Shown here one piece after another: positions 6,754 through 55,789 of a DNA stretch of 57,597 nt. Under the pieces are notes generated by a model that saw only the letters and a program-made list of their open reading frames with translations, was not told the origin of the DNA and searched no databases. Made by a program: the position numbers and the translations under genes. Location of the stretch: positions 1-57,597 of IMG/VR virus record IMGVR_UViG_3300037119_000577; one strand, 5' to 3'. The first letter of the stretch is position 1, and each line of letters begins with the position of its first letter. The stretch comes from a virus. Lineage: Duplodnaviria > Caudoviricetes.

Positions 6754-6942
6754 CTACCACTGTTTATCGTCCGGAATGATCCAACCTTTAGGTTTCTTTT
6801 TCGGATTCAGTAACTGGGCGGTCTCGCAGCAAAATTGGGGATACATCGCCCACCGACTAGGGTTTAGCCAGATCACGCGGAGTTCTTCGGGTGTGACGTA
6901 TCGCCAAGGATTCAGGGTGTCGAATTGGTGAAGCCAGATCAT
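6754..6942 (-). CDS. CPT-motif microprotein (62 aa)
   Basis: MIWL... FCCETAQLL; ATGA-coupled to the polymerase stop. Confidence 0.75.
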   Translation of the reverse strand: MIWLHQFDTLNPWRYVTPEELRVIWLNPSRWAMYPQFCCETAQLLNPKKKPKGWIIPDDKQW

Positions 6943-7802: not shown

Positions 7803-8374
7803 GAATGCCTCCGACTCATGCAACGGTCAAACCATAACTTAAATTCAGTTAATGTCAGGTCGTTTTTGGCCACATTGCATGTTCCGCAACATGCTCGTAA
7901 ATTGTTAACTAGGTATCCTGCAGTGTTATCTAATCTATCTACCCCATTAACGCGTACCGAATCCGCGACTCTACCGCCTCGATTATATGTCTTAATATTA
8001 CTACTTGCGGGTATACCGCATATATAACATGGCGACATTATCAGGTCTCGGAATTCGTCTAAGGTCACAGAAAATTCGTAATTCCGGCTCTTGGCGTTAA
8101 ATTTATAACTCCGAAAATGCTGGCGCGTGGCGGCCTCCCCATCGGGTAGCCGGCTCAGGTTCTTGCGCGGACGATTCGCCCACCGGTCTGCTTTACAGCC
8201 ACACGAGGGTAGAGGTCGATACCGAAGATACGGCCCTCTGAACACCCGCTCGGTTCCGCAATCGCATCTACCTAAGTAGTAGGGTACTTTATTTTTGGTG
8301 TGCGAAAAACTTAGTACGGTCACTAATCCGAATTTCGCGTTGATCATATCGATCCGATTGTGCGCAGCAGTCAA
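7790..8374 (-). CDS. HNH endonuclease inserted in the polymerase gene
   Basis: CDCG..SCGC, PCYICG, NGVDRLDN..GY..NN..CCGTCNVAK. Confidence 0.9.
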   Translation of the reverse strand: MTAAHNRIDMINAKFGLVTVLSFSHTKNKVPYYLGRCDCGTERVFRGPYLRYRPLPSCGCKADRWANRPRKNLSRLPDGEAATRQHFRSYKFNAKSRNYEFSVTLDEFRDLIMSPCYICGIPASSNIKTYNRGGRVADSVRVNGVDRLDNTAGYLVNNLRACCGTCNVAKNDLTLTEFKLWFDRCMSRRHSWPD

Positions 8375-9585: not shown

Positions 9586-9695
9586 AAGGTGAACATCTCC
9601 ACCGTGGGGCACATAGTCCGCATCGTAATCGTCGGGTATGTCCGCGACCATCTATAGTAACGGCCAAGTAAGAACGTATCTTCTACCCAATACAT
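9573..9695 (-). CDS. CPT-motif microprotein (40 aa)
   Basis: MYWVEDTFLLGRYYRWSRTYPTITMRTMCPTVEMFTLCIR. Confidence 0.75.
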   Translation of the reverse strand: MYWVEDTFLLGRYYRWSRTYPTITMRTMCPTVEMFTLCIR

Positions 9696-9700
9696 TCTTC

Positions 9701-9853
9701 TCACGGGCGCGCCTTAAATGGGTTACGGACGGATTGGGCGAACAACTTAATAGTCGGACAGCATACGTACTGCGCGGATATGCTCCACACCCTAAGCGTG
9801 GGTATGCGCATCCAGTGCGGCCCGTCCGGTACTCCGACGTCTCGCCAAAACAT
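9701..9853 (-). CDS. CPT-motif microprotein (50 aa)
   Basis: MFWRDVGVPDGPHWMRIPTLRVWSISAQYVCCPTIKLFAQSVRNPFKARP. Confidence 0.8.
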   Translation of the reverse strand: MFWRDVGVPDGPHWMRIPTLRVWSISAQYVCCPTIKLFAQSVRNPFKARP

Positions 9854-9972
9854 CAGCGCCTCAACATATTAACGGTGGGGCACGCCGCCGGATAAATGCT
9901 ACCTACGGCAGGACCGAGCCAATATAGGACCCTACCCCCGAGCTTGCCGTATACCCAAATCGACGTTACCAT
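9853..9972 (-). CDS. CPT-motif microprotein (39 aa)
   Basis: MVTSIWVYGKLGGRVLYWLGPAVGSIYPAACPTVNMLRR; TGATG overlap with the next gene. Confidence 0.75.
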   Translation of the reverse strand: MVTSIWVYGKLGGRVLYWLGPAVGSIYPAACPTVNMLRR

Positions 9973-10679
9973 ACGACTTCACCTGCCGAAGTTACGGAAA
10001 AATAACAGAGGGTTCCGTCCGTTGAAACATAGTTACCGGGCACCAGTAGCGAAAATCGCGTGTTCTTGCCGTTCGCATTATCGGAGAACGAAGCCAAAAT
10101 TGATCCGTCGTTGAGCCTTAAGAGCACCTCGTCGAACCCGGGCCCATTTCCGCACGGATCAATCGCCGCCACGGGGGTAAATGGGGTCGGAGGGGCGTCC
10201 AAACCGTTTTCGCCGTCCTCCCCGTTACACACCGTCGCCGACTGTTGGCCCGTGTCGAAGGGGGACCAGAGGCCGTCACGATCCGAGTCGAGGGCCGCCA
10301 ACCAGGTCACTCCTCCCGCGGGGCATCCGATTGCGGGGCCGAATTCAAATACGACAGAATACCCAGCAGGCCCCGTTGGACCATAATCGCCAGTAGCGCC
10401 GTTAGCACCGTCAGTACCAGAAACGCCCGTACTCCCCACAGAGCCAGTAGGACCGGCGCTCCCAGTAGGGCCTTGAGTACCGTTCGCGCCGTTTTCACCG
10501 GGGAGCCCATTCGTGCCGTCCTTACCGTCTTTTGGTTGTTGACCGGATTGTACCGTAGGGGGAGGGGTTGGCGCAGGGTCCGGTTGGGCGCACCCTTCGG
10601 TCACGCATTCCGACTGATAATAGACGCGCCCGCAGCCTATGATTAACGCGGCCGTTGCAAGTATTTTGACCAGGTACAC
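9966..10679 (-). CDS. Collagen-like (GXY repeat) lipoprotein
   Basis: Lipobox-like IIGC, long GXY tract, globular C-terminus. Confidence 0.8.
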   Translation of the reverse strand: MYLVKILATAALIIGCGRVYYQSECVTEGCAQPDPAPTPPPTVQSGQQPKDGKDGTNGLPGENGANGTQGPTGSAGPTGSVGSTGVSGTDGANGATGDYGPTGPAGYSVVFEFGPAIGCPAGGVTWLAALDSDRDGLWSPFDTGQQSATVCNGEDGENGLDAPPTPFTPVAAIDPCGNGPGFDEVLLRLNDGSILASFSDNANGKNTRFSLLVPGNYVSTDGTLCYFSVTSAGEVVW

Positions 10680-11365
10680 GAGATACCTCCCGAAAGATTG
10701 AGGAACATGCCCAAGGATTTTTGTAGACGCACCGACTTAAGAATACGGGGCACCAGCTGGGGGTAATTAGGGACGATCTTAAGAAAATGCGGATCGGCTT
10801 CATTAAGCTCGTATCCGGACCAGAGGGTTTCCCGATTAAAATGGTGAAGGATAACGTCCGCCTTCATCCGAAGCGCGCCGTACAGCTGATAAAGCATCAA
10901 CCGGTCGTCGTGCTGAAGAGACTCGGCCCAATTGGTAGCGGACTCCCGGGTGAGCACTCCCGACACACCAATCCGCGCCCCATGCCACAGTAGATAAGAG
11001 CCCGGCAAGGCCCACCGGTTCGTACACTGGGAGTATATGTAGAACGCCATGGACGCCGACATACTCAAGGTGTAACAATTGACAGTGCGCTTTTGGCCTT
11101 TGAGGAGGGCGATCAGGTTGATCAACTCCTGGCCCGCTGTAACCACGCCGCCCGGGGAGTCGATCAGGATGTCCACGGACTGCTTTGAGGGCACTAGGAG
11201 CCGCTGTTGGAGGGCGGCTTTGATAGGTGTGATCGACTCATCGGTAATCATGCCGTCGATAAAGATGAGGGGATCGGGTTCGGCGTCGGCGAACGTGGCC
11301 CACAGTAGGCAGCTAAGGACCGCCGCCAGAGTAACTAAAGACAGCCAATTAATAAACTTGCTCAT
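10643..11365 (-). CDS. ClpP/crotonase-like serine protease with signal peptide
   Basis: IDSPGG, SASMA (Ser), LLWH (His); hydrophobic N-terminus ending ADA. Confidence 0.8.
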   Translation of the reverse strand: MSKFINWLSLVTLAAVLSCLLWATFADAEPDPLIFIDGMITDESITPIKAALQQRLLVPSKQSVDILIDSPGGVVTAGQELINLIALLKGQKRTVNCYTLSMSASMAFYIYSQCTNRWALPGSYLLWHGARIGVSGVLTRESATNWAESLQHDDRLMLYQLYGALRMKADVILHHFNRETLWSGYELNEADPHFLKIVPNYPQLVPRILKSVRLQKSLGMFLNLSGGISCTWSKYLQRPR

Positions 11366-12210
11366 TTGCCCATCCTGTCCGCTTTAAGTTTCGCGAGTAA
11401 CGAAAGATCCGCAGGCATCGTAGGTTCTTGGATGTCCAGACCGGACAATCGCGGCGAAAAGTTCATTGCTTTCTTCTGGTTACCCGATTCGTCCTTCGAA
11501 ACCTTGGTGAGGTCGGTAAGAAACTGGAACTTGTACTTTGTTTCCCCGCCCCGCGTCATCTTACCGACGACCGCGATGTCCCCGAAATGCTGATTCAAGG
11601 ACTCCGCCAAACCGTAGCCGCCAAGCCGGGGGGCCGCCTCGTCGATAGCGCCAAACGCGTCCGTCGATTTGACATCCAGGACCCCCGTTACAACGATATG
11701 GGTACCGAGTTCCCGCTGGCATGCCTTGAGGAGGCCAATAACTTCGCCTAGGATTTCTTGGGTCGCTTCGGTCTCCTTGTACGTATTATGCTTACCCGCG
11801 GTAGTGCGGCACTTCTCCTTCCACTCCTGGGTACCTTTCACCATCGCTTCAAGGACCGCGAGACCGTCGACGGCAATCGCCTTGTACGCCTGGGACTTGA
11901 TGTACGCCTGGTCCATCAAGATCGCACGAAGGAACTCGAGGGACTCGTCGGAAGTAAAGGCGCGCTCGTCTTTCTCCCCGGGCCACACGCCATAGTCGAT
12001 GCACATTGGCTCGACATTAGCCTTACCTTGAACGGATGCGGTCTTCGGCCCGTGGGACTCTCGGAGCCCATACAGATAAAGCGTCTTAACGCCCAAGGTA
12101 CCGATACAATACGACTTTCCCGCGCCTTGACTTCCAAGCACAATAAGTTCAAGCAGTGGGTTCTTAAGAGCCTTAGCGGCGGACTTTTTCGCGGCGTCGA
12201 AGTTAAACAT
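11362..12210 (-). CDS. Sak4/AAA_24-like ATPase (recombination)
   Basis: GSQGAGKS Walker A, IAVDGL Walker B; size and context. Confidence 0.7.
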   Translation of the reverse strand: MFNFDAAKKSAAKALKNPLLELIVLGSQGAGKSYCIGTLGVKTLYLYGLRESHGPKTASVQGKANVEPMCIDYGVWPGEKDERAFTSDESLEFLRAILMDQAYIKSQAYKAIAVDGLAVLEAMVKGTQEWKEKCRTTAGKHNTYKETEATQEILGEVIGLLKACQRELGTHIVVTGVLDVKSTDAFGAIDEAAPRLGGYGLAESLNQHFGDIAVVGKMTRGGETKYKFQFLTDLTKVSKDESGNQKKAMNFSPRLSGLDIQEPTMPADLSLLAKLKADRMGK

Positions 12211-12448: not shown

Positions 12449-12586
12449 TCATTGTTTGGTTCCTCCATTAAGCTTATCGTCGGTCCGTCTGGAAAACTTT
12501 AGCAGTTTCTCAGAACCGCAGCGAGGACAGCGGGTTACCTTGGTGCGCATTAATAGTCGGCAAGAGGCGCACTTGTATATAGTCAC
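12449..12586 (-). CDS. Zinc-ribbon microprotein (45 aa)
   Basis: Not in ORF track; YKCASC..RCPRCGS; overlaps both neighbours by 4 nt. Confidence 0.6.
   Translation of the reverse strand: MTIYKCASCRLLMRTKVTRCPRCGSEKLLKFSRRTDDKLNGGTKQ
12474..12501 (-). promoter_or_regulatory. sigma28-type promoter
   Basis: TAAAGTTT-N12-GACGATAA upstream of 12210..12452 and the Sak4-like gene. Confidence 0.65.
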
Positions 12587-13371
12587 CGGGACCCCGGCCG
12601 CAGAGACGCCTTCTTTTCCAGTGAAAGCAGATTGTTACGATCACGGGTCTCCGCGCCGCACTCGACGCATTTGTATCTTTGATACTTACCAACCGCGGTA
12701 AACTTGTAACCGTTCTTCTTAAACTCCGTGGATCCACAGTTACACTCAGTATCTAAGGATGCGGAATACATATTGAAATTGATCGAGTTATCCCACGGTT
12801 CGAGCTTCTTATAAAGTTCCTCGAGCGAGAGTACATCGTACTTATTATACCGCTCCATCTCTTTCCACGCCGCCAGATTGCCCGCGAGGCACTCCTTCCA
12901 CAATTCGAACCCGCCAAACTTCGCGTGCTTGATCTTCTTGTACTTAACGCACAGTTTGTCCGTCATGTACTCGAGCTTATTGGAAGTAAATTTGAAATGC
13001 TTGGACGCGATCTGTTTGGTATCAATATGCTTAAACGACGATGGGGGCTGAAATCCGTTGAGAATGAACCGCGCGTTCAATTTCTTCTGATCAAAGGACT
13101 TTCCATTTTGGGTGATTACGATATCGGCCTCGTTAAGGAGGTCCCAGATACCCTGGAGCAGCTTGCGGTCGTCTTGGATGTCCTTAACGCCCCGCTGATC
13201 CTTGTACATGATCTTGGTAGGCGGATCATGCAGCCACTTGGCGGACCACGAAAGTACGTGCCAGTCGGAATGGACCTGATTGAGGGCGACGTTGTTCTCC
13301 CAGAGACCCCACACATAGCCGAGCATGGGAGCCGTCTCTATATCAAAGATAAGGACCTTAGGCTTACTCAT
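12583..13371 (-). CDS. DnaQ/RNase H-like 3'-5' exonuclease with C-terminal Zn ribbon
   Basis: FDIET, QNGKSFD, HIDT, YNKYDV, CNCGS..CVECG. Confidence 0.85.
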   Translation of the reverse strand: MSKPKVLIFDIETAPMLGYVWGLWENNVALNQVHSDWHVLSWSAKWLHDPPTKIMYKDQRGVKDIQDDRKLLQGIWDLLNEADIVITQNGKSFDQKKLNARFILNGFQPPSSFKHIDTKQIASKHFKFTSNKLEYMTDKLCVKYKKIKHAKFGGFELWKECLAGNLAAWKEMERYNKYDVLSLEELYKKLEPWDNSINFNMYSASLDTECNCGSTEFKKNGYKFTAVGKYQRYKCVECGAETRDRNNLLSLEKKASLRPGSR

Positions 13372-14832: not shown

Positions 14833-16293
14833 TTATGATTCTGCCCAAACTATAGACTCGACGAAGGACTTAGGCAACTTGTCCTTATACTGGCGAATGA
14901 GTCGGCTAAAGTTGCCGTCCAGAATGTAGGTCTTCGAAAAATCATCAGGATCCCGGGTGGACCGCCCGCACGCCTGGATCACCACTTTAAGCGTCTCGAG
15001 CGCGTACCAATCGTCCCCATCCTGGAGGGCCTTCCTCTTCGCAACAATCGGATCTTTGAGGTCGGGGAACGGGAGCTTAGGTATAATATTCAGGCGGCAC
15101 AGATCGCCCTTCAAGTCGATCCCCTCGGCGCACCCCGACGCCAGAAACACGCCCCCGTGCTGCTTAAAGAAGTCTAGCTTTTCAATCTTGTTCGTGGAGT
15201 CATTCACGATCACGGGCCCCGAAAAGTGGGGAGCCAGCTTCTTGGACATCGAGTACGTCGTATGGACCAAAGTATTAAGGCCCAGATTCGCCGCCAAGAT
15301 CTTCTCGATTTCGCCCACGATCTTCCGGGGGTCCGCCTCCCAATTCATCCGGAACGGGGCGGGCTTGAAGTACACGGGCCGATTCTCTTTGGGGATCGGG
15401 GAGGGCGCGTCTAGGAATTTAACGTGCCGATCGCCCACCAGATCGAGAATGTCGGACTGCATCAAGGTTCCCGACATTAAGATCAACTTCTTGGCTCTTA
15501 ATAGTTTATCAACGACGAACCGCGGAGGCCGGATGGGCTTAATATTAAGATACCGATCGGGCCTACCCCGGTACTTACCCGAATCGATCCACACCGCGTA
15601 ATTCTCGGGGGCCTCCTCCAGGCCGCGGAGGGTCATCCGGATTTGCTCGAGTTCGCGGGTTATTTCGGCGAACCGTGTGGGTTGGGCCTTATAGTAAATC
15701 GCGAGCGCGGACAGCTTTTTGATCTGATCCTGGAGCCACCGACCGAGGAATACGGTATTCGTGACGGTCTCGGGGAACTTGAACATCGAATACCGGAGCC
15801 GAGATCCGCACAACAAGAGGAGCATCGACGGAAGGGTGTGAGCCTCGTCGACTATCAGGACGTTCGGGTCCTCCCACCCCTCTGCCTGCGTAAGATAATA
15901 AAGCGACATAGGGTTAAAGAACGTCGGTTGCGTAAGGGCCCGCTGCTTACAAACGGTATAGGGGCAGTCCTGACACGCTTTTTGCTCAAGGGTGTTAGTC
16001 CAATCGTGGCACGAATAACCCGACGAGCAGTTATAATGGGTCTTCCCCTTCAAGAAATTCTTCTTTGGGTATGAAGCGGCGTACTGGTCGATCAGAAGGT
16101 TCGACGGCGTTATAACGTGGGCCCCGGTCACCAGGGAGATTGCCTGCGCTAAGGCGGACTTCCCGAGAGCGACGGGGAAATTGCCCGCGAGGATCGGGTG
16201 CTTCCAGTTTTCGGCGAACCACTCAAGAACGTCCTTCTGAACAGGTCGAGGAACGCGCGAGGTGCCATCGAAGTATTTAAGGAAGTCTACCAT
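14833..16293 (-). CDS. DinG/XPD-like SF2 helicase
   Basis: Q motif RPVQ, PVALGKS, Cys cluster, DEAH, MSGT, EGIDL, QACGRSTR. Confidence 0.9.
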   Translation of the reverse strand: MVDFLKYFDGTSRVPRPVQKDVLEWFAENWKHPILAGNFPVALGKSALAQAISLVTGAHVITPSNLLIDQYAASYPKKNFLKGKTHYNCSSGYSCHDWTNTLEQKACQDCPYTVCKQRALTQPTFFNPMSLYYLTQAEGWEDPNVLIVDEAHTLPSMLLLLCGSRLRYSMFKFPETVTNTVFLGRWLQDQIKKLSALAIYYKAQPTRFAEITRELEQIRMTLRGLEEAPENYAVWIDSGKYRGRPDRYLNIKPIRPPRFVVDKLLRAKKLILMSGTLMQSDILDLVGDRHVKFLDAPSPIPKENRPVYFKPAPFRMNWEADPRKIVGEIEKILAANLGLNTLVHTTYSMSKKLAPHFSGPVIVNDSTNKIEKLDFFKQHGGVFLASGCAEGIDLKGDLCRLNIIPKLPFPDLKDPIVAKRKALQDGDDWYALETLKVVIQACGRSTRDPDDFSKTYILDGNFSRLIRQYKDKLPKSFVESIVWAES

Positions 16294-16463
16294 ACGTTCC
16301 TCTTTCCTAGCTGAATGAACATATCTATCGTGGGGCACGCGGGAATAATTTTAATAGAGGCGGGCTGCCTAAGCCTGGCTAATTGCGCGCGGTCACGCTT
16401 ATAATTACATCTAATCCATATACCTTGGTACGCCGTCAACCACCCATCTTGTGGGTCGATCAT
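16287..16463 (-). CDS. CPT-motif microprotein (58 aa)
   Basis: MIDPQDGWL...IIPACPTIDMFIQLGKRNVW; ATGA-coupled to RuvC. Confidence 0.75.
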   Translation of the reverse strand: MIDPQDGWLTAYQGIWIRCNYKRDRAQLARLRQPASIKIIPACPTIDMFIQLGKRNVW

Positions 16464-16951
16464 CGCGCAGCCCAACATTTGTAGATCATTACGCTATCCG
16501 AAATGTCATCCGACACAATGTGGTGCGTGACCATATCGAATCCCGTTTCCGCAAGGGACCGGCAACCCTTAATATCCGCGGTCGGTCCGGCAGCCCCATT
16601 CTTCTTGGCCCACTGCTTCCACGACGAAGAGTAAATGAAGGACGCGGACTCCGACATCTTTGCATGGATCCGGGGGCAGCAGAGGAACGACCCGATCACA
16701 ATAAGGACCAGCCGAGACTTAACGCCCTCGAACAGGACTTTCTGAACGTCCAAACCGGGGGGCAGGTGCTCGTTAAGGAAGTCCGTAAGCTGCTCGAGCT
16801 GATACTGGACACGCCGGGAGAAGGGGTCCGTGGGCTTCCGCGAGCGGAGGACCGTGGTCGCGATCAGGTTGCCGTTGAGCCACAGGGACACCCCCGCGGC
16901 ATTTGACGCCTGATCGATCGAGAGGACGTAGCCAGCTTCCTTAGATTTCAC
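16460..16951 (-). CDS. RuvC-like Holliday junction resolvase
   Basis: LSIDQA..GVS, VLFE, SWK, DDISDS. Confidence 0.8.
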   Translation of the reverse strand: MKSKEAGYVLSIDQASNAAGVSLWLNGNLIATTVLRSRKPTDPFSRRVQYQLEQLTDFLNEHLPPGLDVQKVLFEGVKSRLVLIVIGSFLCCPRIHAKMSESASFIYSSSWKQWAKKNGAAGPTADIKGCRSLAETGFDMVTHHIVSDDISDSVMIYKCWAAR

Positions 16952-17805: not shown

Positions 17806-18309
17806 TTATTCTCTTAATACATGTCGCTCGATATAATCCGAGCGAGCTTTTTCTGAGGCGCGAGCCGCGTCCTCTAATTGATCAAAATACCCTAGAAAAT
17901 GATTATATCCGCCGTGTTTAATCTGAGCCCGCCACCGCCCTCTATCCTTACACCACACTACCCCGCGGTACCCTGAAGCATTCTTGCGCTTACTATTAAC
18001 ACAATTAGCACTTTGACTGATAAATCTCAGGTTACTTTTCTGATTGTTGAGCGGGTTACGGTCAATATGATCCACTACGTACCCCTCCCTACGTCCCATG
18101 ATTGCAAAGTGTAGTAGTAATACCGTACCTATAGCCGCCCATTCTGACGTCAATTCGCGGACGCCGTACCCTTTGGTGTGTCTTGTCCAGTTAAATTGGT
18201 CTAGAAACGCATAATCTTCGTCGTCTACCATAGCGAATATCGCGGCCGTCTTATTTCTCTTACTTAATTGTAATAGTCGCATGTCCAGCCATTCTTTACT
18301 CCTTAACAA
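17806..18309 (-). CDS. HNH endonuclease with AP2 domain
   Basis: VDDED, VDHIDRNPLNNQKSNLR, SGYRGV..WRAQI..LGYF. Confidence 0.9.
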   Translation of the reverse strand: MLRSKEWLDMRLLQLSKRNKTAAIFAMVDDEDYAFLDQFNWTRHTKGYGVRELTSEWAAIGTVLLLHFAIMGRREGYVVDHIDRNPLNNQKSNLRFISQSANCVNSKRKNASGYRGVVWCKDRGRWRAQIKHGGYNHFLGYFDQLEDAARASEKARSDYIERHVLRE

Positions 18310-48089: not shown

Positions 48090-49439
48090 TTATTGAATCT
48101 TGGGGACCCAATCATTGTAGTCTTTATACTTGCGCATCAAGACCTTGTAACAGGACTCCATATAATGCCGCAGCGTATCCTTATCTTCCGCTTTTACGAT
48201 GAAAGAATCGTGAACCCCTAAACAAGGTCTACCGGCGCGCTTGAACGATAACATAATATTATTAGCCAGTTGCGAGTCTAGATATTGTAGGTCAAGCCCT
48301 ATACCTGTAAAAAATTTATCTGCAATCGGGGCGTGCGCGCCTATTAGCAAATCGATCAAAGACTTTGCCGGGTCGTTGCAGTCCGACACACTTAACCCAT
48401 CATGCAAGATGATACCCTTCTCCTTTAAACCGCTTACAATGGCCTTAATCGCAACCTGGCGCGACGTTGCGTTAAAGACGCACATCAGGGCCACTTTCGC
48501 CGCCTCGCGGTTTAGCGGGCCAATTCCGGCTGCCTGGTAGGGATCTCCGACTACAGGTGCACCTTTAATATGGTAGATCATCGTCGGATGCAAAGAGCTG
48601 TAGTCTAACTCAACCGTAGGCTCCCCATCGATCTCTATAGTGGCTCGCTCCAGCTTACGCAGGTTCTGGAAGTCCGCGTAAAACCTACCCCCCTTATGGA
48701 ACCTCCCCATGAATACTCTATTAAATGATATAGACGCCGGTTCCAAATCTATAGATTTCCTATTTGGGTTACTTATCAGTAATGATTGGTCTAATGTACT
48801 AAGTCTTCTATGTAGGAGGGGGAGGGAGAGGGGGGGAGGGGTGTACCTATACTTATAGGATAGATTACTATCATTAATTAGTCCTAATAACTGATGAGTC
48901 TCTTTAATCTTTCCAGATAAGTAGTACTTCATTAACTTACCCGTATCAGGGTTCCGTAGGAGGAGGCGCCCCTTTTCCTTTATTTGTTCGGTACTTAGGG
49001 TGTTTACGTACTGAGCCAGCAATCGGTTAAACTTAACCGTAGGCCAAAGACCAGTACGGAGGCCCTTTTCGTAACCTGGCGTTTTGAATCCCTTTTTCTG
49101 TTCTAGAAAACCGTCTCGCTCGAGGGTGTCGATCGCTAAGACTAATGCGGCTAGGTTTATATGTTTGTAATTGTACACCTTTGGGTCCTTAACATAGTCC
49201 GACGCGGCCCGCGAGACCACGACGCGGCACTCCGACGCCTGTTGCTCGGAGATCAAGGATGCGCACGCGAGATTGAATATGAGACATGTATACGCGAGCT
49301 GCGTTTCGGGACCGGGACCAACGTTAAATTGTCCAATGATGTTGCGGGATAGGTCGCCGATTTCGCCCCGGGACATCGAGAAAAAAATGAATAGGCCGTG
49401 GGGGTCTGTGCCAGACTTCGGTAAGGTATCAATACTCAT
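48090..49439 (-). CDS. Compact PolA / single-subunit RNAP-like palm-domain protein
   Basis: GGRFY..FQNL, motif A VELDYSSLHP, motif B REAAK, LQYLDS, motif C GVHDSFIV; no exonuclease domain. Confidence 0.7.
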   Translation of the reverse strand: MSIDTLPKSGTDPHGLFIFFSMSRGEIGDLSRNIIGQFNVGPGPETQLAYTCLIFNLACASLISEQQASECRVVVSRAASDYVKDPKVYNYKHINLAALVLAIDTLERDGFLEQKKGFKTPGYEKGLRTGLWPTVKFNRLLAQYVNTLSTEQIKEKGRLLLRNPDTGKLMKYYLSGKIKETHQLLGLINDSNLSYKYRYTPPPLSLPLLHRRLSTLDQSLLISNPNRKSIDLEPASISFNRVFMGRFHKGGRFYADFQNLRKLERATIEIDGEPTVELDYSSLHPTMIYHIKGAPVVGDPYQAAGIGPLNREAAKVALMCVFNATSRQVAIKAIVSGLKEKGIILHDGLSVSDCNDPAKSLIDLLIGAHAPIADKFFTGIGLDLQYLDSQLANNIMLSFKRAGRPCLGVHDSFIVKAEDKDTLRHYMESCYKVLMRKYKDYNDWVPKIQ

Positions 49440-49473
49440 CGTAAAGGCTCCTGCAAGTTAGTGCCCGACAGAC

Positions 49474-49518
49474 TTATCGGTAAAATCTATTAAAGTCTTG
49501 AGGGCCGTCTGCCGATTA
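49474..49518. promoter_or_regulatory. Overlapping divergent sigma28 promoters
   Basis: +: TAAAGTCT-N12-GCCGATTA (49491-49518); -: TCAAGACT-N12-ACCGATAA (49501-49474). Confidence 0.75.
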
Positions 49519-49538
49519 GTGGGGTGGAGGTACGATTT

Positions 49539-49703
49539 ATGATTTTATGGGTGCAGTTTAGAACGCCGAATACTCCCGATAGACTCGAGGGCCGGCACGG
49601 TCGGTGGGGGTTCGACACGGCCGGGGCCCTTTATCCGGCCCGGGGCTGGGTTAACGCGAGATACGTACCCTACTGCCCCACCGTCGGCATATTTTGGGCA
49701 TAA
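49539..49703 (+). CDS. CPT-motif microprotein (54 aa)
   Basis: GGAGG RBS; MILWVQF...YVPYCPTVGIFWA. Confidence 0.8.
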   Translation: MILWVQFRTPNTPDRLEGRHGRWGFDTAGALYPARGWVNARYVPYCPTVGIFWA

Positions 49704-49718
49704 TTAAGGAGTCCGTGT

Positions 49719-49895
49719 ATGTGGGTTCATAGTGGCGGCCCCGATTCGCCGGTTAAGTTGCTCAGGTCGGGAGATATGGCGGGCCTACAAAATCCGATGT
49801 ACGAACCTTTCTCGGCCTGGCTTGCGCGCACTTGTTCATGGGACTTCTGCTGCCCCACCGCGCAGCTTTTCAATCGGGGAGGGTCGAACCTGTGA
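49719..49895 (+). CDS. CPT-motif microprotein (58 aa)
   Basis: AAGGAG RBS; MWVHSGG...WDFCCPTAQLFNRGGSNL. Confidence 0.8.
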   Translation: MWVHSGGPDSPVKLLRSGDMAGLQNPMYEPFSAWLARTCSWDFCCPTAQLFNRGGSNL

Positions 49896-50128
49896 AAATC
49901 GTGCGGCCGATTCGTATGATGCGGGTAACGGCGGACGTAGGGCCAAAATACTGGTTGGTTAAGGTCGCGCCGCCCGGGCGTACGAACTGGATGCACGGAC
50001 TCTATTACTTTATTATGCGCGATGGGGGTAGTAAGCTTGATACGATTAGCGAACGCGCTCTAATTGAGTTCGGCTATCGGCCCGTTTGCGAACTCCAGGC
50101 CCTTTTCGCTATTGAGGAGACCCCGTGA
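49892..50128 (+). CDS. CPT-motif variant microprotein (78 aa)
   Basis: GTGA overlap; ...YRPVCELQALFAIEETP. Confidence 0.7.
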   Translation: MKIVRPIRMMRVTADVGPKYWLVKVAPPGRTNWMHGLYYFIMRDGGSKLDTISERALIEFGYRPVCELQALFAIEETP

Positions 50129-50373
50129 AATTCTTCCCCACGCAAGTCGACGACATAATTATGAATTTAGGCGGTAAGTACTTCTTGGTCGGAGAGCGTA
50201 TGTATAAGGAGAAATACTCCTTAGGGGCGCCGTGGGACCTCGTATCGCCGTCTGGGAGTTCGCCGTTCGGCCCTACAGAGTGGGACCGGTGGCGGAAGAG
50301 TTACGATCATCGTCTGATACGGTGTGATACGGTAAAGCTATTTTGCGGAGGGACCGATGTACGTAATCCATAA
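50125..50373 (+). CDS. CPT-motif microprotein (82 aa)
   Basis: ...RLIRCDTVKLFCGGTDVRNP. Confidence 0.75.
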   Translation: MKFFPTQVDDIIMNLGGKYFLVGERMYKEKYSLGAPWDLVSPSGSSPFGPTEWDRWRKSYDHRLIRCDTVKLFCGGTDVRNP

Positions 50374-50536
50374 ATCAGATGGGCGCGTGGAAAGGTTGTA
50401 CCGGGGAGACTACGGACAATTTTGGCGTGCCGGAGTGGGTCCGCATCATGTACGTCCGCTAAAATTGTGGACGTTCTATTGGTACGTTCACATTTGTCCC
50501 ACGGTGGAGATGATCATATCTAAGGAGAATTTCTAA
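50357..50536 (+). CDS. CPT-motif microprotein (59 aa)
   Basis: GGAGG RBS; MYVIHK...YVHICPTVEMIISKENF. Confidence 0.8.
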   Translation: MYVIHKSDGRVERLYRGDYGQFWRAGVGPHHVRPLKLWTFYWYVHICPTVEMIISKENF

Positions 50537-50739
50537 TGCGGATCGGTGATCTTCAAGTGGGCGATATTATTTGGGAAACCGAGTCCGGACTACTTAAAGG
50601 GGGCCTAGTTCTGAATTCTCGTCATTATATTTGTGAGACGAATCGTTTGGACCTACCCGCTCACGACCTAGATATTTCCTATCTGCGTGTAGTGCGGTGC
50701 CCGCTCTTGACGAAACTTTTCCCGGGGAGTCCGCTTTAA
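50536..50739 (+). CDS. CPT-motif variant microprotein (67 aa)
   Basis: TAATG overlap; ...RVVRCPLLTKLFPGSPL. Confidence 0.7.
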   Translation: MRIGDLQVGDIIWETESGLLKGGLVLNSRHYICETNRLDLPAHDLDISYLRVVRCPLLTKLFPGSPL

Positions 50740-50749
50740 AATTATGTTC

Positions 50750-50776
50750 TAAAGTTTTTCCGCGCGGGGTCGATAA
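50750..50776 (+). promoter_or_regulatory. sigma28 promoter upstream of the MoxR ATPase
   Basis: TAAAGTTT-N11-GTCGATAA. Confidence 0.8.
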
Positions 50777-50830
50777 GAAGTAAGTGAGTTGCGAAAGTCC
50801 ACTATTAATATCTTTACCGGAGTAACGTCG

Positions 50831-52069
50831 ATGAATCTTAAAGAGTACCGCGAGGCGCTGCCCCTACTGTTCCAGGCACGCGTAACGTCACTTTGCTGGT
50901 CATTTCACGGAGTTGGAAAGAGTTCCGTTCCGCAACAATTTGCGGACGAGGGGGGCCATAAGCTAGTCAATTACCGTCTCGGCAATGTGGAGGCCGGGGA
51001 ACTTCTAGGTATCCCGACCGAGGTTATTGACCAGTACAATTCGGCCAATAAAGTCGCCACTCGCAACCTAATGCCCGAGTGGCTTAAAGATATGATCGCC
51101 TTTTGTGTAGCTAATCCGGATAAATATGGCATTCTACACTTGGACGAGATCAACCACTGCAGAAAAGACATGCAGTCATTCGTTTTCCAAATGTCCCTGG
51201 ATCACCGCCTGCACGAAACGGACTTCCCACCGAACCTTCATGTGATTTGTTCAGCAAACCCCCCTACGGACGACTACGCGGGCGTGTTCGACTTTTCCAA
51301 CAAGGCGCTCTTAAGCCGCTTCTGTCATATTAAGCTTCAGCCCACCTCCTCGGAATGGCTCGAGTATGCGCGCTTCAAAGAGTTCGACGCCGACGTGGTC
51401 GACTATATTGCTCTTAATCCGGAGCAGCTCGACCCGGTCCTTCAGCCGTTCTCCGTGGACGAATACGCGAACCGGAACCGCCGAAGTTTCGAGTTCTTCT
51501 CGAGGCTCCGGAAGCTGGGCGCCTCGAATGAGCTTCTGATGGGTATCATCGGTTCGGCGAACGTACTCGCTTTTAATAAGTGGCTCGACGAAGCCCGGGA
51601 AAAGTCCATTGTGGGTGCGGACATTCTCGACGGCTATTCGAAGGTCCAAGATCGGGTGCGCGAACTTGTGAAGGCGGGTAAAATCGCCTCCCTGACCACG
51701 ATAACCGCGTCCCTGGTGTCCGCAATCGAGCCGATCCCCGAGGCGGCCTTCGTCGACCAAGTGGACCGTGTGCGCAATGTGGCGGCCTTTATTTGCGACT
51801 TGCCCCCGGACATCGGTTGGGCCGCTGCGAGTCAGATCGTATTCCTTCCCGCCGCCCACTACGGTCCCGACAAGCCCACCGGCAAGGAGCCCACCCAAAC
51901 GCCCGGATCGATGTGGGGCCCCCACACGTGTCCGGAGCTTTACGAAACCGTAAAAGCGTGGAAGGAAGCGGGCATCGACAAGAAGCACCAGGCCGCGGAA
52001 GAGACGAAAGCCAGAGAGGCCGAAGTTGCCGCAGAAGCCCCAGTCGCCAAAAAGAAAAAGAAGGCTTAA
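50831..52069 (+). CDS. MoxR-like AAA+ ATPase
   Basis: HGVGKS, LLGIP, LHLDEINH, SANP, ALLSRF. Confidence 0.85.
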   Translation: MNLKEYREALPLLFQARVTSLCWSFHGVGKSSVPQQFADEGGHKLVNYRLGNVEAGELLGIPTEVIDQYNSANKVATRNLMPEWLKDMIAFCVANPDKYGILHLDEINHCRKDMQSFVFQMSLDHRLHETDFPPNLHVICSANPPTDDYAGVFDFSNKALLSRFCHIKLQPTSSEWLEYARFKEFDADVVDYIALNPEQLDPVLQPFSVDEYANRNRRSFEFFSRLRKLGASNELLMGIIGSANVLAFNKWLDEAREKSIVGADILDGYSKVQDRVRELVKAGKIASLTTITASLVSAIEPIPEAAFVDQVDRVRNVAAFICDLPPDIGWAAASQIVFLPAAHYGPDKPTGKEPTQTPGSMWGPHTCPELYETVKAWKEAGIDKKHQAAEETKAREAEVAAEAPVAKKKKKA

Positions 52070-52086
52070 TCCTTTTAGGAGATCTC

Positions 52087-52299
52087 ATGTATATTATGTT
52101 GTATGTTATTGTACCTATCGGCTACAACGATAAGACAGACTGGGTCGATTTTATGGACGTTCAGTGCGCGGGCCCCTTTGATACTGAGGAGGCGATGCAC
52201 GAATTCGATATACCGCTATTAAGTGGTACCTGCGCCCCGCTTAAATTTTTCCGCCTAGATCCTGCGACGGGCCTATACGCGCCGTATCTTCCAGAATGA
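52087..52299 (+). CDS. Small protein, weak motif variant (70 aa)
   Basis: AGGAG RBS; internal GTCAPLKFF. Confidence 0.6.
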   Translation: MYIMLYVIVPIGYNDKTDWVDFMDVQCAGPFDTEEAMHEFDIPLLSGTCAPLKFFRLDPATGLYAPYLPE

Positions 52300-52439
52300 G
52301 AGTCTACTGGTCTCGCATCCGCGGCGACTACGGCCGCAACGTTGAGAATCCGGGTATGCGGGAGCTTTTCTGGGAGCATATCCCCTTAGAAGAAATCGCG
52401 TGCCCCACGGTTGGCCTATTTTTAAGGGAGTACTCTTAA
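52296..52439 (+). CDS. CPT-motif microprotein (47 aa)
   Basis: MRVYWSR...EEIACPTVGLFLREYS; ATGA and TAATG overlaps. Confidence 0.82.
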   Translation: MRVYWSRIRGDYGRNVENPGMRELFWEHIPLEEIACPTVGLFLREYS

Positions 52440-53593
52440 TGGATATTAATCCCCTCGAGCGCGCGATCATGCACTTGATTCGCGAGGAGCGCTGGTACGC
52501 CGAAGTGATCATGCAACTGGACCGTAAGGAGGACCCCAAAATCCCGGGAGGCACCGCCGCGGTGGGTATTCGCCCCCGGCCCACCCTCTACTATCATCCG
52601 GATCTATTTGCGAATAACGACTTACAGACGAACGTCCAACTCCTTAAACACGAAGTGGTCCATCTTCTTAATCAGCACTTAACGCGCACGGGCGGAACGA
52701 TGAACCGCCTCCAGAACGCGGCTGCGGACCTCGCCGTTAATTCCTTTATCGACGGCTTTCAGGGCCTTAAGACGAAGGACCCCGACGGCCAGTGGACCTT
52801 CAAGAAGGGGTGCACGGTCGAGAATATGAAGGACCAGTTTCCGTCATTGATCAAGGGGCAGACTATGGAGTGGTACATTGCCGCTCTCAAGCAGGACGGC
52901 GCAACCGAGGGGGGTGCTCCCGACACGTCCGACGATCACTCGAAGTGGTCCGAGGGCGACTCGTCCGGGTCCGAACTCGAGGAGTACGCCGTCAAAGGGA
53001 TCATGCAAACCGCGGTCGAGCGCACCCAGCGCGCCGGGGGGCAGGTTCCCGACGGTCTTCGGGACCTCCTTAAGAGCTTGCTATCAAGTAAGAGCCAGTG
53101 GCAGCGGGAGCTTCAACGGTTCCCCCAAGATGCTGAAATCGTGGGCACTGAAGATACGTGGCGCCGCAGGAATCGGAGGTTGGGATCTATAGTTCCCGGG
53201 TCCAAGAAGGTCCGCAAAGTCAAGGTGTGCGTGGGTATTGATGTATCCGGATCGGTGGACGGGCCTCTGTTGCAGCTTTTTTACGCGGAAATCGACAAAA
53301 TCGCCCAACATGCCGAAGTGGTAGCGAGTTTCTTTGACCATTGCGTGCAAAAAACGCTCCCGTGGTCTGAAGTGCGCAAACTTTCCAAAATTCCGGGCGG
53401 GGGCGGTACCTGTTTTCAGCCGATGCTCGACGAGGCCACAAAGATTAAAGCTGATGGGCTAATCATGTTAACTGACGGCATGAACGGGGACACGATCACC
53501 CGGCCGAAGTACCCGGTAATCTGGGCCGTCCCGGAACAGTACAACTACGTGCCCCAATTCGGAAAGTTGGTCAATATTGCGGATCCGAAATGA
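52439..53593 (+). CDS. HExxH metallopeptidase-like + vWA domain protein (MoxR partner)
   Basis: HEVVH..H..R, NAAADLAVN, MIDAS DVSGS, GGGGT, LTDG. Confidence 0.88.
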   Translation: MDINPLERAIMHLIREERWYAEVIMQLDRKEDPKIPGGTAAVGIRPRPTLYYHPDLFANNDLQTNVQLLKHEVVHLLNQHLTRTGGTMNRLQNAAADLAVNSFIDGFQGLKTKDPDGQWTFKKGCTVENMKDQFPSLIKGQTMEWYIAALKQDGATEGGAPDTSDDHSKWSEGDSSGSELEEYAVKGIMQTAVERTQRAGGQVPDGLRDLLKSLLSSKSQWQRELQRFPQDAEIVGTEDTWRRRNRRLGSIVPGSKKVRKVKVCVGIDVSGSVDGPLLQLFYAEIDKIAQHAEVVASFFDHCVQKTLPWSEVRKLSKIPGGGGTCFQPMLDEATKIKADGLIMLTDGMNGDTITRPKYPVIWAVPEQYNYVPQFGKLVNIADPK

Positions 53594-53730
53594 AAATATG
53601 GGGATGGGACGCTACGTATAATTCGTGGGTGTTAATCGGACGTAACGCGTGTCGCGCCTGGCCCATTTGGAGTGGGCACTTTATAGCATGCCCTACTGTA
53701 GCTCTACTAATACAGGATCCGAAATGAAAA
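53581..53730 (+). repeat. 16-bp direct repeat GGATCCGAAATGAAAA flanking one microprotein gene
   Basis: Identical copies at 53581-53596 and 53715-53730. Confidence 0.9.
53590..53727 (+). CDS. CPT-motif microprotein (45 aa)
   Basis: MKIWGW...HFIACPTVALLIQDPK. Confidence 0.8.
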   Translation: MKIWGWDATYNSWVLIGRNACRAWPIWSGHFIACPTVALLIQDPK

Positions 53731-53864
53731 ACGGAATTCAGGGTGTCGTCTGGTGGCGCGAGTTCGGTGATTATCCGAACCCATGGCGGTCCAGGTTTAT
53801 GGTGGACTCCGGAATTGCTGAACGGCTCTGGTGTGAAACGTGCAAACTGATGGGGACTAAATGA
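53724..53864 (+). CDS. CPT-motif microprotein (46 aa)
   Basis: MKNGIQGVVWWR...RLWCETCKLMGTK. Confidence 0.8.
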   Translation: MKNGIQGVVWWREFGDYPNPWRSRFMVDSGIAERLWCETCKLMGTK

Positions 53865-54013
53865 TTTTTCGCTCAAAAAGTGTTTGGTGGCGCCCTTTTA
53901 ACGACCCACAAGCGGGGCCGGAGACGTGCCCTTACGATTTCTACACCAACTCGTACGTCGCCGAGGGTCTATACTGTCCCACGTGTAAGCTTTTCGCCAC
54001 TCGAGGCACTTAA
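53861..54013 (+). CDS. CPT-motif microprotein (50 aa)
   Basis: MIFRSKSVWWR...GLYCPTCKLFATRGT. Confidence 0.82.
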   Translation: MIFRSKSVWWRPFNDPQAGPETCPYDFYTNSYVAEGLYCPTCKLFATRGT

Positions 54014-54150
54014 TGTACTGGTTCACCATAAATGGGGGGCCTGAATGGGAATATTATATACCCGGGCGCTCCGGCGACACGGTCTACAGCAACGAAACGA
54101 TATGCGAAACGTGCCGACTCTTTTTACGCGAGTCTACTCATAATGCTTGA
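54013..54150 (+). CDS. CPT-motif microprotein (45 aa)
   Basis: MYWFTI...ETICETCRLFLRESTHNA. Confidence 0.82.
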   Translation: MYWFTINGGPEWEYYIPGRSGDTVYSNETICETCRLFLRESTHNA

Positions 54151-54679
54151 CCAAATACACGAATTTAACATCGATCGCCGTAAGCGCACTCTCTATTGCT
54201 TATACGAGTCCATCGACGGCGCGGCGGCGAATCAATTCCTTAAAAATCTTGATTACCTCAATCGCACCAAGGGCCGGATCCGCGTATACTTTTCCACCAG
54301 CGGCGGTTCGGTGATCGACGGTCTCACGATGTACGAGGCGATCCGGCGGTCCGCCAATCCCGTAGATATCATTATTACCGGCGCCGTCCAGTCGATCGGG
54401 GCGTTTATTATCCAAGCCGCCCATCGCCGCCTGATTGAGCCCACTGCCTATATCATGTATCATTCCGGGACGTTCCAGACTTCGGAAACCGCCGTGGACG
54501 AGGTCGCTAAAGAGGCCTTGTTTACTCGCGACCAATTCTCGATGATCGACTCCTTGATGTATGCGCGTATCAAGCCAAAGATGTCCCTCGATGCGTTTCG
54601 GGAAGCCGTGAGGAGATCTATTTGGCTTGATGCTAGGCAAGCTTTGAAGGCGGGATACGTGGACGAGGTGCTTAAATGA
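54143..54679 (+). CDS. ClpP-like protease (cytoplasmic)
   Basis: STSGGSV..G..MYEAI, VQSIG (Ser), IMYH (His), WLDARQALKAGYVD; start moved to ATG 54143. Confidence 0.85.
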   Translation: MLDQIHEFNIDRRKRTLYCLYESIDGAAANQFLKNLDYLNRTKGRIRVYFSTSGGSVIDGLTMYEAIRRSANPVDIIITGAVQSIGAFIIQAAHRRLIEPTAYIMYHSGTFQTSETAVDEVAKEALFTRDQFSMIDSLMYARIKPKMSLDAFREAVRRSIWLDARQALKAGYVDEVLK

Positions 54680-54957
54680 AAACTCTTTGGCTGTGGGCGG
54701 ATCCGCTGTCCGATAATGACAGCCCAAGAGCCACGTCGAATGCCGGATTGACTATAGGCGAACGTCGATTCGTCAAAATTGCGCAAGATAACGACAGTCA
54801 TATCAATGATCAAGCCGTTAAGCACGCCAACCATGGTTGGATCACCTCCAACACCATCGGAGTGCGCCTCGATCCGAATTCGAGCAGTTCCGCCTGGTGG
54901 GTTGCGCGAGAGAACTTGTCGATCTGCTGTCCAACCCTTTTTCTGATGGGTATCTAA
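54676..54957 (+). CDS. CPT-motif protein (93 aa)
   Basis: MKTLWLW...LSICCPTLFLMGI. Confidence 0.78.
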   Translation: MKTLWLWADPLSDNDSPRATSNAGLTIGERRFVKIAQDNDSHINDQAVKHANHGWITSNTIGVRLDPNSSSSAWWVARENLSICCPTLFLMGI

Positions 54958-55194
54958 ATGTGGTATCATTATATAGACTCGAAAACACCAATGCTCCGGG
55001 CCCTTCCAACCGATAAGATCGGCGCGCGTGCAGTTAGTGAGTTTATCAGTACGCCCGCTTATAGGACCAAGTACATCTGTCTACGAACTTTCCGCAACGA
55101 CCCGACGTCCGCAGCCTTTTATGAACGCCGTTACTATGAGGCCTTCTGCCCTCTGGTGCGCTTAATGGACGAGGTAGCCCGTGGTGTGGGTTAG
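54958..55194 (+). CDS. CPT-motif variant microprotein (78 aa)
   Basis: MWYHY...EAFCPLVRLMDEVARGVG. Confidence 0.75.
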   Translation: MWYHYIDSKTPMLRALPTDKIGARAVSEFISTPAYRTKYICLRTFRNDPTSAAFYERRYYEAFCPLVRLMDEVARGVG

Positions 55195-55339
55195 GACAAA
55201 TCATGGTGTAATCTGTGCAGTACGACATTCGCAAAACGAGTACGGCGGATATAAATATGTCAACTCGCGCGTGTCGTGGGATTTTGCGAAAAGTTTCAAG
55301 GTCTACTGCCCAACTTCCGCAATGTTATTCGGAGGTTAG
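55181..55339 (+). CDS. CPT-motif microprotein (52 aa)
   Basis: GAGG RBS; MVWVR...KVYCPTSAMLFGG. Confidence 0.8.
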   Translation: MVWVRTNHGVICAVRHSQNEYGGYKYVNSRVSWDFAKSFKVYCPTSAMLFGG

Positions 55340-55342
55340 CCG

Positions 55343-55489
55343 ATGTGGGTCCGGTTCAGTCACGTGAGCGATGCGGTGCGGTCATTCTGCGTCAATTGGG
55401 ACATCTTTAATACATGTTATAAAAACAAGTCTACGGTCCTAAAGTTTTGCTGCGAGACTGCCGATATGTTTAGAGTGGGAGGTGACTAA
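55343..55489 (+). CDS. CPT-motif microprotein (48 aa)
   Basis: GGAGG RBS; MWVRF...LKFCCETADMFRVGGD. Confidence 0.8.
   Translation: MWVRFSHVSDAVRSFCVNWDIFNTCYKNKSTVLKFCCETADMFRVGGD
55440..55467 (+). promoter_or_regulatory. Intragenic sigma28 promoter
   Basis: TAAAGTTT-N12-GCCGATAT. Confidence 0.65.
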
Positions 55490-55644
55490 TGTTTTAGTGG
55501 CGCGCGGGTCCCGGAAAGCACTTAAACGGGAAATGGTACAACTTCGAATACGCTAAAGCTAATGCCGTAATAGTTTCCGGTCAAGAAGTGTGCCCGACCG
55601 TCCGCCTGTTCGTGAGGATCTGGGATGTGGATGTATCACCGTAG
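55489..55644 (+). pseudogene. CPT-motif microprotein gene with amber stop at codon 3
   Basis: GGAGG RBS, ATG TTT TAG TGG then open to ...QEVCPTVRLFVRIWDVDVSP. Confidence 0.7.
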
Positions 55645-55789
55645 CGACCCCCTGCAATTCGGTAAAATGCAGCCGATGTACGAATATCGCTATATTACGT
55701 TAAGTGTAAATCAGTATTACCAGATTTCCGGATCGTCTAAGATATTCACGTACTTCTGCGATACGTGCGAAATGTTGCGAGGCGCCTGA
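55625..55789 (+). CDS. CPT-motif microprotein (54 aa)
   Basis: MWMYHR...TYFCDTCEMLRGA. Confidence 0.8.
   Translation: MWMYHRSDPLQFGKMQPMYEYRYITLSVNQYYQISGSSKIFTYFCDTCEMLRGA

Follow-up and report, generated by a model that had tools for sequence, protein, structure and literature searches.

Why would a phage set three genes of ordinary size, for a putative ATPase, a metallopeptidase and a protease, among a dense run of open reading frames (ORFs) of only 40-90 amino acids (aa)? The question is raised by the IMG/VR record IMGVR_UViG_3300037119_000577 (Duplodnaviria; Caudoviricetes), a whole virus of 57,597 bp rated 100% complete, which is referred to here at its full length as the window. Window DNA is present in four runs, each labelled soil metagenome and none of them an RNA run, and three of the four contain the entire stretch and may be where this DNA came from. 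A preliminary description had drawn attention to positions 50831-54679, where the three large genes are embedded in the array of microprotein genes. It proposed that a short peptide near the C-terminus of the microproteins (CPTVxLF, hereafter the tag) docks many different target-binding microproteins on the three enzymes, for instance to disable host defence proteins. We report that these large genes constitute a single conserved operon of phages, in which a pair of the N4 gene 24/25 type is extended by a ClpP-like gene and by a gene for a conserved 113-aa protein, and that the translational coupling of this operon with the microprotein genes is tight. As the best explanation we propose, tentatively, an ATP-driven remodelling and processing machine with the microproteins, alone or in complex with their targets, as its clients.

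The ATPase, DUF2201 and ClpP-like genes

Tiny ORFs predominate in the plus-strand arm of the genome (49.5-57.6 kb). The only ORFs of at least 120 aa in this arm are 50789-52069, 52400-53593 and 54032-54679, together with an out-of-frame overlapping ORF at 51793-52299. Comparison with a relative, the locus L084, places the real starts of the three large genes at 50831, 52439 and 54143, so that the ORF survey and the comparison agree with the earlier statement that these are the only large genes of the arm. The identities first given to them (a MoxR-like ATPase, a protein with HExxH and vWA domains, and ClpP) are likewise borne out by Pfam, PHROG and profile matches.

The first gene (50831..52069, plus strand) encodes a 412-aa protein matching phrog_1297 'ATPase' at 4e-41. 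Taken alone, the window protein passes no Pfam threshold (AAA_5 at E 0.22, below the cut-off). Among 19 homologues, matches were obtained to PF07728 (AAA_5) in 16, to PF07726 (AAA_3) in six and to PF20030 (bpMoxR) in two, and a profile of the 19 matched Midasin (1e-35), NorQ (1e-7), CbbQ (3e-7), CobS (9e-7) and also McrB in the PDB. K30 of Walker A, D105-E106 of Walker B, N143 of sensor-1 and R163 are invariant in the 19 aligned homologues, the window included. On the PHROG match, the homologues' Pfam matches, the PDB profile matches and these motif residues, the protein can be assigned to the MoxR/AAA_5 group of AAA+ ATPases.

The second gene (52439..53593, plus strand) lies 370 nucleotides (nt) downstream of the ATPase gene and encodes a 384-aa, N4 gp25-like protein with an N-terminal HExxH zincin and a C-terminal vWA domain, called the DUF2201 protein here. 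It matches PF13203 (3e-17, 63.4 bits, cut-off 23.2) and PF09967 (1.5e-17, 64.3 bits, cut-off 26.4). The zinc site H71, E72 and H75 (HExxH) and a further H80 are invariant in 22 of 22 sequences, as are D268, S270 and S272 (DxSGS), T324 and D346, which we take to form a complete metal ion-dependent adhesion site (MIDAS). Judged by these residues, the ATPase and the zincin with its intact MIDAS are apparently active. Homologues of the DUF2201 protein were found by tblastn in 130 phage records, many of them N4-like, in genes annotated 'N4 gp25-like' or, wrongly, as HNH endonuclease. Of 162 loci with a DUF2201 homologue, 106 have an ATPase homologue upstream of it on the same strand, and most of the others are cut short upstream.

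The third gene (54143..54679, plus strand) encodes a putative ClpP-fold Ser-His peptidase of 178 aa that matches PF00574 (9e-20, 71.7 bits, cut-off 20.2) and, at 2e-10, ClpP in the PDB; its best PHROG matches fall to 'head maturation protease' families. In an alignment with Staphylococcus aureus ClpP, the catalytic Ser and His have counterparts in the window protein, and the third Asp of the DTDRD segment, the catalytic Asp, stands opposite the Ser of RRSIWL. The remark in the preliminary description that Ser and His are kept while RRSIWL stands at the expected Asp is thus upheld, and it extends to the whole clade: in its six members Ser84 and His107 are invariant and the canonical Asp column holds no Asp (Ser in the window; Ser, Gly, Gly, Gly and Thr in the five others). 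Because none of the six has the Asp, its loss is a conserved trait rather than decay. The aligned core is preceded by 15 residues in the window and by 27 in S. aureus ClpP, a difference of about 12. In canonical ClpP the N-terminal segment forms the axial loops that serve gating and the Clp ATPase partners. The window protein resembles S14 ClpP and phage head maturation proteases in its PF00574 match, its aligned Ser and His and its PHROG matches, and differs from S14 ClpP in the missing Asp, the shorter N-terminus and its position outside the head module.

Further ClpP-family genes occur away from the operon. One in the window (10643..11365, minus strand; PF00574 5e-9, 36.7 bits; phrog_94 7e-10) encodes 240 aa with an N-terminal hydrophobic segment and sits two genes upstream of three minus-strand microprotein genes. 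Five marine genomes of ~190 kb (G009, G015, G022, G024 and G029) have one or two ClpP-family genes each, 18-47 kb from the ATPase-DUF2201 module. Six of the eight marine ClpP matches contain one in-frame stop codon.

The window clade and the 113-aa protein

A protein collection held DUF2201 homologues with 69, 63, 57 and 55% identity to the window protein. The comparison with a close relative rests on one fetched contig, L084, taken from a 55-kb contig. Its order is microprotein genes, ATPase gene, one microprotein gene, DUF2201 gene, two microprotein genes and ClpP gene, followed by more microprotein genes, a homologue of the 113-aa protein and further microprotein genes. A tagged ORF (9819-9980 of L084) lies between its ATPase and DUF2201 genes, in the same position as in the window. 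Identity between the window and L084 is 71% for the ATPase, 64% for the DUF2201 protein, 53% for ClpP and 43% for the 113-aa protein, and the microproteins match over 5-43 residues only, mostly around the tag, at E values of 1e-5 or worse. The microproteins thus evolve far faster than the enzymes.

In the more distant L004, L085 and L086 (35-37% identity), ClpP directly follows DUF2201 and a homologue of the 113-aa protein lies downstream. The flanking microproteins of these loci end in (I/V)PD(S/T)A(V/I)LL..G, VP.LL..LRG and (V/C)PDT..IL.G; the conserved ends are specific to a lineage and uniform inside one genome. L088 carries six microprotein genes whose products end in KLARLLYE and lacks a ClpP gene within 2.7 kb, and the L087 locus ends 0.4 kb after its DUF2201 gene.

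The 113-aa protein (55963..56304, plus strand) has homologues in L084, L004, L085, L086 and P0107-P0109. It is kept in every fetched window-clade relative that reaches that far and is, in this clade, the fourth conserved member of the module. Its AlphaFold2 (AF2) model, with a predicted local distance difference test (pLDDT) score of 87, consists of a long helix, a beta-hairpin and two helices. No family was assigned by Pfam or PHROG. The best Foldseek match in the PDB has an E value of 0.46, the best VIA-align match (Z 5.6) is to generic helical hairpins, and an Atlas search gave no usable match.

The microprotein family

Upstream of the ATPase gene, six CPTVxLF microprotein genes follow one another on the plus strand (49524-49703, 49719-49895, 49916-50128, 50125-50373, 50357-50536 and 50536-50739), as seen from ORFs, alignment and a family profile. 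Directly 3' of the ATPase gene is a 70-aa ORF (52087..52299) that has an AGGAG ribosome site of its own and, some 20 residues short of its end, a degenerate tag, CAPLKFF. It is followed by a tagged microprotein gene (52296..52439) that is joined to the upstream ORF by an ATGA overlap and to the DUF2201 start by a TAATG overlap. Four genes with successive overlaps (53590-53727, 53724-53864, 53861-54013 and 54013-54150) fill the space between DUF2201 and ClpP. Six more follow ClpP (54676-54957, 54958-55194, 55181-55339, 55343-55489, 55625-55789 and 55765-55959), and seven (56301..57428) reach the record end. Members of the same family also occur on the minus strand, three in the other arm (9573-9704, 9701-9853 and 9853-9972; alignment and family profile) and one that overlaps the start of a helicase gene (16287..16478; alignment).

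As the preliminary description had stated, microprotein genes overlap the starts and stops of the DUF2201 and ClpP genes: by TAATG at 52439, by ATGA-type overlaps of 4 nt at 53590/53593 and 54676/54679, and by 8 nt at 54143/54150. In a scan of 49300-57597, promoters were found at chance level, and two terminator-like sites were found against 8.7 expected from shuffled sequence (sd 2.5). This shortage of terminator-like sites is consistent with one long transcription unit on the plus arm.

The strict motif C[PED]T[VCIAST]x[LMI][FLMI] occurs in the last 22 residues of 17 plus-strand and four minus-strand frames. First-order shuffling of the window, repeated 100 times, produced 0.05 such frames on average and never more than one, and the reversed sequence gave none. 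The distance of the tag from the C-terminus varies between 8 and 19 residues. When 28 microproteins are aligned, the Cys of CPTVxLF is invariant, a Trp near the N-terminus is present in at least 90%, a Gly is common, and the middle is variable between the conserved ends. On this alignment the 28 are paralogues of one family, with the tag as its C-terminal block. The tag first noticed is therefore a real, shuffle-controlled peptide motif; as to its being a free docking peptide carried by unrelated proteins, the shared N-terminal Trp and Gly of these paralogues argue otherwise. The codons for its Pro, Thr, Val and Leu vary synonymously, which indicates that the tag is conserved as a peptide and not as DNA; with this variation, and with an opposite strand that holds no conserved family, a DNA or RNA element was rejected for the window. 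A metal, heme or thioether role of the Cys was rejected as well: in related arrays the position is Val, Ile or absent, and this replacement suggests that the Cys has no essential chemical role. A resemblance of xLF to beta-clamp-binding motifs was considered and dropped. A further plus-strand frame, 55498-55644, carries a perfect CPTVRLF tag and has no ATG, GTG or TTG start giving 30 aa; it may have decayed from a family member or rely on a different start codon.

The family profile recovers 22 plus-strand and four minus-strand ORFs of the window and five in L084. Against Pfam and PHROG the microproteins matched no family, apart from one 'Phage tudor domain' match at E 0.11 and a few others at chance level. 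Among 1.84 billion representatives the profile gave three matches, namely the window's own, a 918-aa low-complexity repeat protein and a 2445-aa protein. An AF2 model of low confidence (pLDDT 64) predicts an N-terminal hairpin and places the tag in a short C-terminal helix. A complex prediction of the DUF2201 protein, the ATPase and one microprotein, run without controls, returned scores of 0.57, 0.01 and 0.01 and speaks neither for nor against contact.

Microprotein arrays around the module in other phages

The preliminary description had asked whether tagged ORFs and these enzymes occur together in related phages. A family of at least six C-terminally related ORFs on the module strand was found in 26 of 101 loci of at least 10 kb (shuffled tails, 1 of 101), and at least four copies of an N-terminal motif in 47 of 101 on the module (plus) strand against 0 of 101 on the opposite (minus) strand. 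By either criterion an array is present at 51 of the 101. Within the marine clade, many of the rows labelled 'none' are near-identical to 'array' rows and reflect incomplete loci. Where full 10-kb flanks and distinct proteins were required, an array was present at 18 of 31 loci. Most array loci belong to a large marine clade of ~190-kb phages, whose microproteins read MKVGDLVK...W.DG...LEVISESR. A profile of the marine family recovers ORFs in 70 of 163 sources, 456 in total and every one on the module strand. It gave no match in the window clade, and the window profile gave none among the marine ORFs; therefore at least two families without detectable sequence relation accompany the same module. 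In the window, in L084 and in the marine locus L023, microprotein-type ORFs separate the ATPase gene from the DUF2201 gene.

In large records the arrays keep close to the module. A C-terminal pattern gave 22 matches in four records of 131-191 kb, all within 10.7 kb of DUF2201 (control pattern, 0), and none in a fifth record. In two of these records all 26 matches of an N-terminal pattern lay within 8.5 kb of the DUF2201 gene. In the marine arrays (L023 868-7596 and G001-G004) consecutive genes overlap by 14 nt, such that the end of one protein (NESR or SESR and the stop) is the M/V-K-V-G-D start of the next gene in another frame.

The relation was also tested in reverse, by scanning IMG/VR for nothing but the DNA pattern of the marine family's tag. 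At least 120 stretches were obtained and 80 of them were taken up, 30 of which were set aside (nine lay on contigs that the module had already led to, eight duplicated a contig and thirteen lay on contigs shorter than 25 kb). A DUF2201 gene was present in 36 of the 50 remaining records, including all 11 rated at least 90% complete, and the 14 that lack it have completeness ratings of 14-47%. No relative with the array and without the enzymes, which would have told against the docking proposal, was thus encountered: L084 keeps both, more distant relatives keep the trio among other arrays, and the near-complete genomes picked by microprotein motif all hold DUF2201. Co-occurrence in related phages accordingly stands as far as L084, the synteny of the clade and the reverse test go; the genomes are interrelated and exceptions exist.

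Comparison with described systems

The ATPase-DUF2201 pair is already known as a phage module. N4 genes 24 and 25 are core genes expressed as middle transcripts, and in the N4 core-gene table they are labelled 'Unknown' and 'vWFA domain', respectively (PMC4193335). N4-like phages (Schitoviridae) resemble the window in that homologous ATPase and vWFA genes follow each other in the same order, separated by one ORF (two phages examined), and their ATPases align with the window ATPase at 2e-13 and 8e-8. The N4-like loci L002 and L003 differ from the window in that no ClpP stands beside the pair and no microprotein array is present; identity is about 24%. The ORF between the N4-like ATPase and gp25 genes was considered as a microprotein relative and dropped, as no resemblance was seen by eye. 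In group 2.2 jumbo phages, a MoxR ATPase is paired with a vWA cochaperone carrying a fused N-terminal metallopeptidase, as in the window; in its passages on the pair this account by Iyer et al. 2021 mentions neither an adjacent ClpP nor microprotein arrays, and it treats phage ClpP separately, as possibly host-directed (PMC7824862).

Among cellular proteins, Midasin, NorQ, CbbQ and CobS are the best solved relatives of the ATPase profile. In Midasin/Rea1, NorQ-NorD, CbbQ-CbbO, RavA-ViaA and CobS-CobT, an ATPase ring works with a MIDAS partner that holds the client. The window differs from these machines in that its vWA protein carries a zincin peptidase and the genes are viral. Machines of this kind, for example Midasin, NorQ-NorD and CbbQ-CbbO, are listed together in PMC7159879. 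F-box and SOCS/BC-box adaptors offer a looser likeness, being many diversified small proteins with a common block, as are the microproteins, which here stand beside a protease and an ATPase; the microproteins differ from them in having no homology to them, and their conserved block may belong to the fold. In the literature searched, mostly open-access and exclusive of supplements, no published description was found of the microprotein family, of the recurrent embedding of the module in microprotein arrays or of the extension of the module by ClpP and the 113-aa protein.

Genome context

The window is a 57-kb phage with podovirus-like gene order. Its minus arm (about 490-49439) follows the T7-like structural order of large terminase, endonuclease VII, portal, a 329-aa protein without family, major capsid protein and tail or internal virion proteins, and continues with replication and lysis genes. 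The head module (portal, 329-aa protein without hits and major capsid protein) contains no protease gene. Cultured phages gave no match to positions 50700-54700 by blastn and none to the window capsid protein by tblastn. When IMG/VR was scanned with the DUF2201 or the capsid protein singly, no relative was returned, and relatives surfaced only through the alignment search. The window capsid protein was found in 0 of 5 marine genomes, in a search that had no positive control.

On the minus strand at 9573-12210, five features lie between the polymerase exonuclease gene (12583-13371) and the polymerase genes (8371-9651 and 6939-7823): a Sak4-like gene, the second ClpP-family gene, a collagen-repeat protein and the three CPTVxLF microprotein genes. 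The collagen-repeat protein (gene at 9966-10679, minus strand) has an N-terminus that resembles a lipoprotein signal. The DNA polymerase is split over separate ORFs (6939-9651, minus strand), two of which are separated by an endonuclease VII/HNH gene (7790-8374), and further HNH genes lie at 3868-4581 and 17806-18309. The split polymerase and the HNH genes suggest homing endonuclease insertions.

Discussion

What, then, might the operon do with the microproteins around it? The explanation that we tentatively favour is a machine in which the MIDAS of the vWA domain would capture a client, the ATPase ring would supply the pulling force, and the fused zincin, together with ClpP in the window clade, would cut the client, which would be either a microprotein itself or a microprotein-target complex. 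This mechanism of holding, pulling and cutting we infer by analogy with Midasin, NorQ-NorD and CbbQ-CbbO. Physical contact between the module and the microproteins, the direction of their relation (adaptor or substrate) and a host target are likewise elements that we infer. That the enzyme-plus-array layout recurs across many uncultured phages hints at a shared job.

Several findings weigh against this explanation, and most of them fit a possible but rather doubtful alternative, in which the enzymes and the microproteins have independent early or middle functions and are merely packed into one permissive, tightly spaced transcription unit, the arrays having arisen by tandem duplication. The conserved ends would then reflect the fold core of a small domain and the constraints of overlapping genes and ribosome sites. 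The microproteins do share N- and C-terminal blocks, as paralogues would, and DNA-level constraints account for part of the ends: in the window the tag is often followed by Gly, Arg and Glu codons, and these coincide with the GGAGG-like ribosome site of the next gene, and part of the marine 'tag' is a by-product of the 14-nt overlap with the next gene start. The pair occurs without arrays in the N4-like phages examined, at 13 of the 31 full-flank loci and in 13 of the 14 rows of one marine subclade, so that the linkage of array and module is frequent and not obligatory. From that subclade, G056 has three family-type motifs 31-34 kb from the module and G057 has two at 10-12 kb; in the window itself four family members lie far from the operon, in the other arm. 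It is only in the window's clade that ClpP adjoins the module. The genomes with arrays group in two clades, and neighbourhood inheritance may therefore explain much of the co-occurrence. In phage 0305phi8-36, a deletion mutant lacking a MoxR-like gene, a vWA-like gene, six genes of unknown function and two tRNA genes remained viable and had a growth defect (PMC3357382). Mere co-location is at odds with other observations: families without detectable sequence relation surround the same module in 57-kb and ~190-kb phages, all array matches in the large genomes (22 of 22 and 26 of 26) cluster close to the module, and microprotein-type ORFs recur between the ATPase and DUF2201 genes in three separate loci.

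If the microproteins are clients of the machine, as we tentatively favour, two special cases arise. The preliminary description had in effect proposed the one that we consider unlikely, an adaptor library in which the variable middle would bind differing host proteins and the C-terminal helix would dock on the ATPase, vWA protein or ClpP, so that host defence or housekeeping proteins would be delivered for unfolding and cleavage, by analogy with F-box and SOCS-box proteins. It draws on the same linkage of array and module; the divergence of the microproteins far above that of the enzymes would be expected of arms-race binders, the conserved ends differ between lineages and are uniform within a genome, and a MoxR ATPase of phage Bas54 is required to overcome the defence system DS-28 (PMC13716836). 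It is harder to reconcile with a tag at no fixed distance from the C-terminus, with a ClpP that lacks the N-terminal segment used by canonical ClpP with its partners, and with a module that works without arrays in many phages. Given the paralogy of the microproteins, the array-free pairs and the kinship of the genomes, adaptor-directed proteolysis therefore stays one of several readings. The converse case, to which we give about the same low probability, is a library of substrates or precursors whose conserved ends would be trimmed by the zincin and ClpP to release or activate variable peptides, the ATPase and vWA protein acting as a dedicated chaperone, loosely as in precursor arrays served by one maturation enzyme. 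Two peptidases interleaved with about 28 related short ORFs of conserved ends and variable middle, gene overlaps that imply co-expression and the array-module linkage are what such a library would show; against it, a cleavage site cannot be named, ClpP does not adjoin the marine arrays, and small folded domains require no processing. Least probable of all, in our judgement, is a chaperone and protease for virion assembly, in which the pair and ClpP would assemble or mature structural proteins and the microproteins would be unrelated to them. Such a role has been shown for the tail of Acidianus two-tailed virus. The 'head maturation protease' matches of ClpP would suit it, and Iyer et al. 2021 proposed a virion-assembly role for the pair, citing an archaeal virus (PMC7824862). 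This role sits poorly with a trio placed on the arm opposite the structural genes, a head module that has no protease gene, a ClpP that holds its place after DUF2201 in four relatives and not beside capsid genes, the middle transcription of N4 genes 24 and 25 (PMC4193335) and the viability of the 0305phi8-36 deletion, which spans the MoxR-like and vWA-like genes and eight others (PMC3357382).

The adaptor case can be carried further, to a speculative proposal that probably does not hold: a widespread, undescribed phage system in which a MoxR-class ATPase and a zincin-vWA protein, with ClpP in some lineages, would service a hypervariable library of microprotein adaptors against host proteins, the machine being supplied, lineage by lineage, with a different microprotein scaffold, recruited or invented anew. 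If true, this would give a function to the conserved, unexplained N4 gene 24/25 pair. The ATPase and vWA pair is core in N4-like phages and is also present in jumbo phages; if its clients are encoded alongside it, its function would be testable with a few synthetic genes, and the tiny ORFs that number in the hundreds among abundant uncultured marine phages (456 in 163 sources) would be accounted for. A phage library of adaptors or precursors coupled to its own remodelling protease would, if real, be a new route to host takeover or counter-defence.

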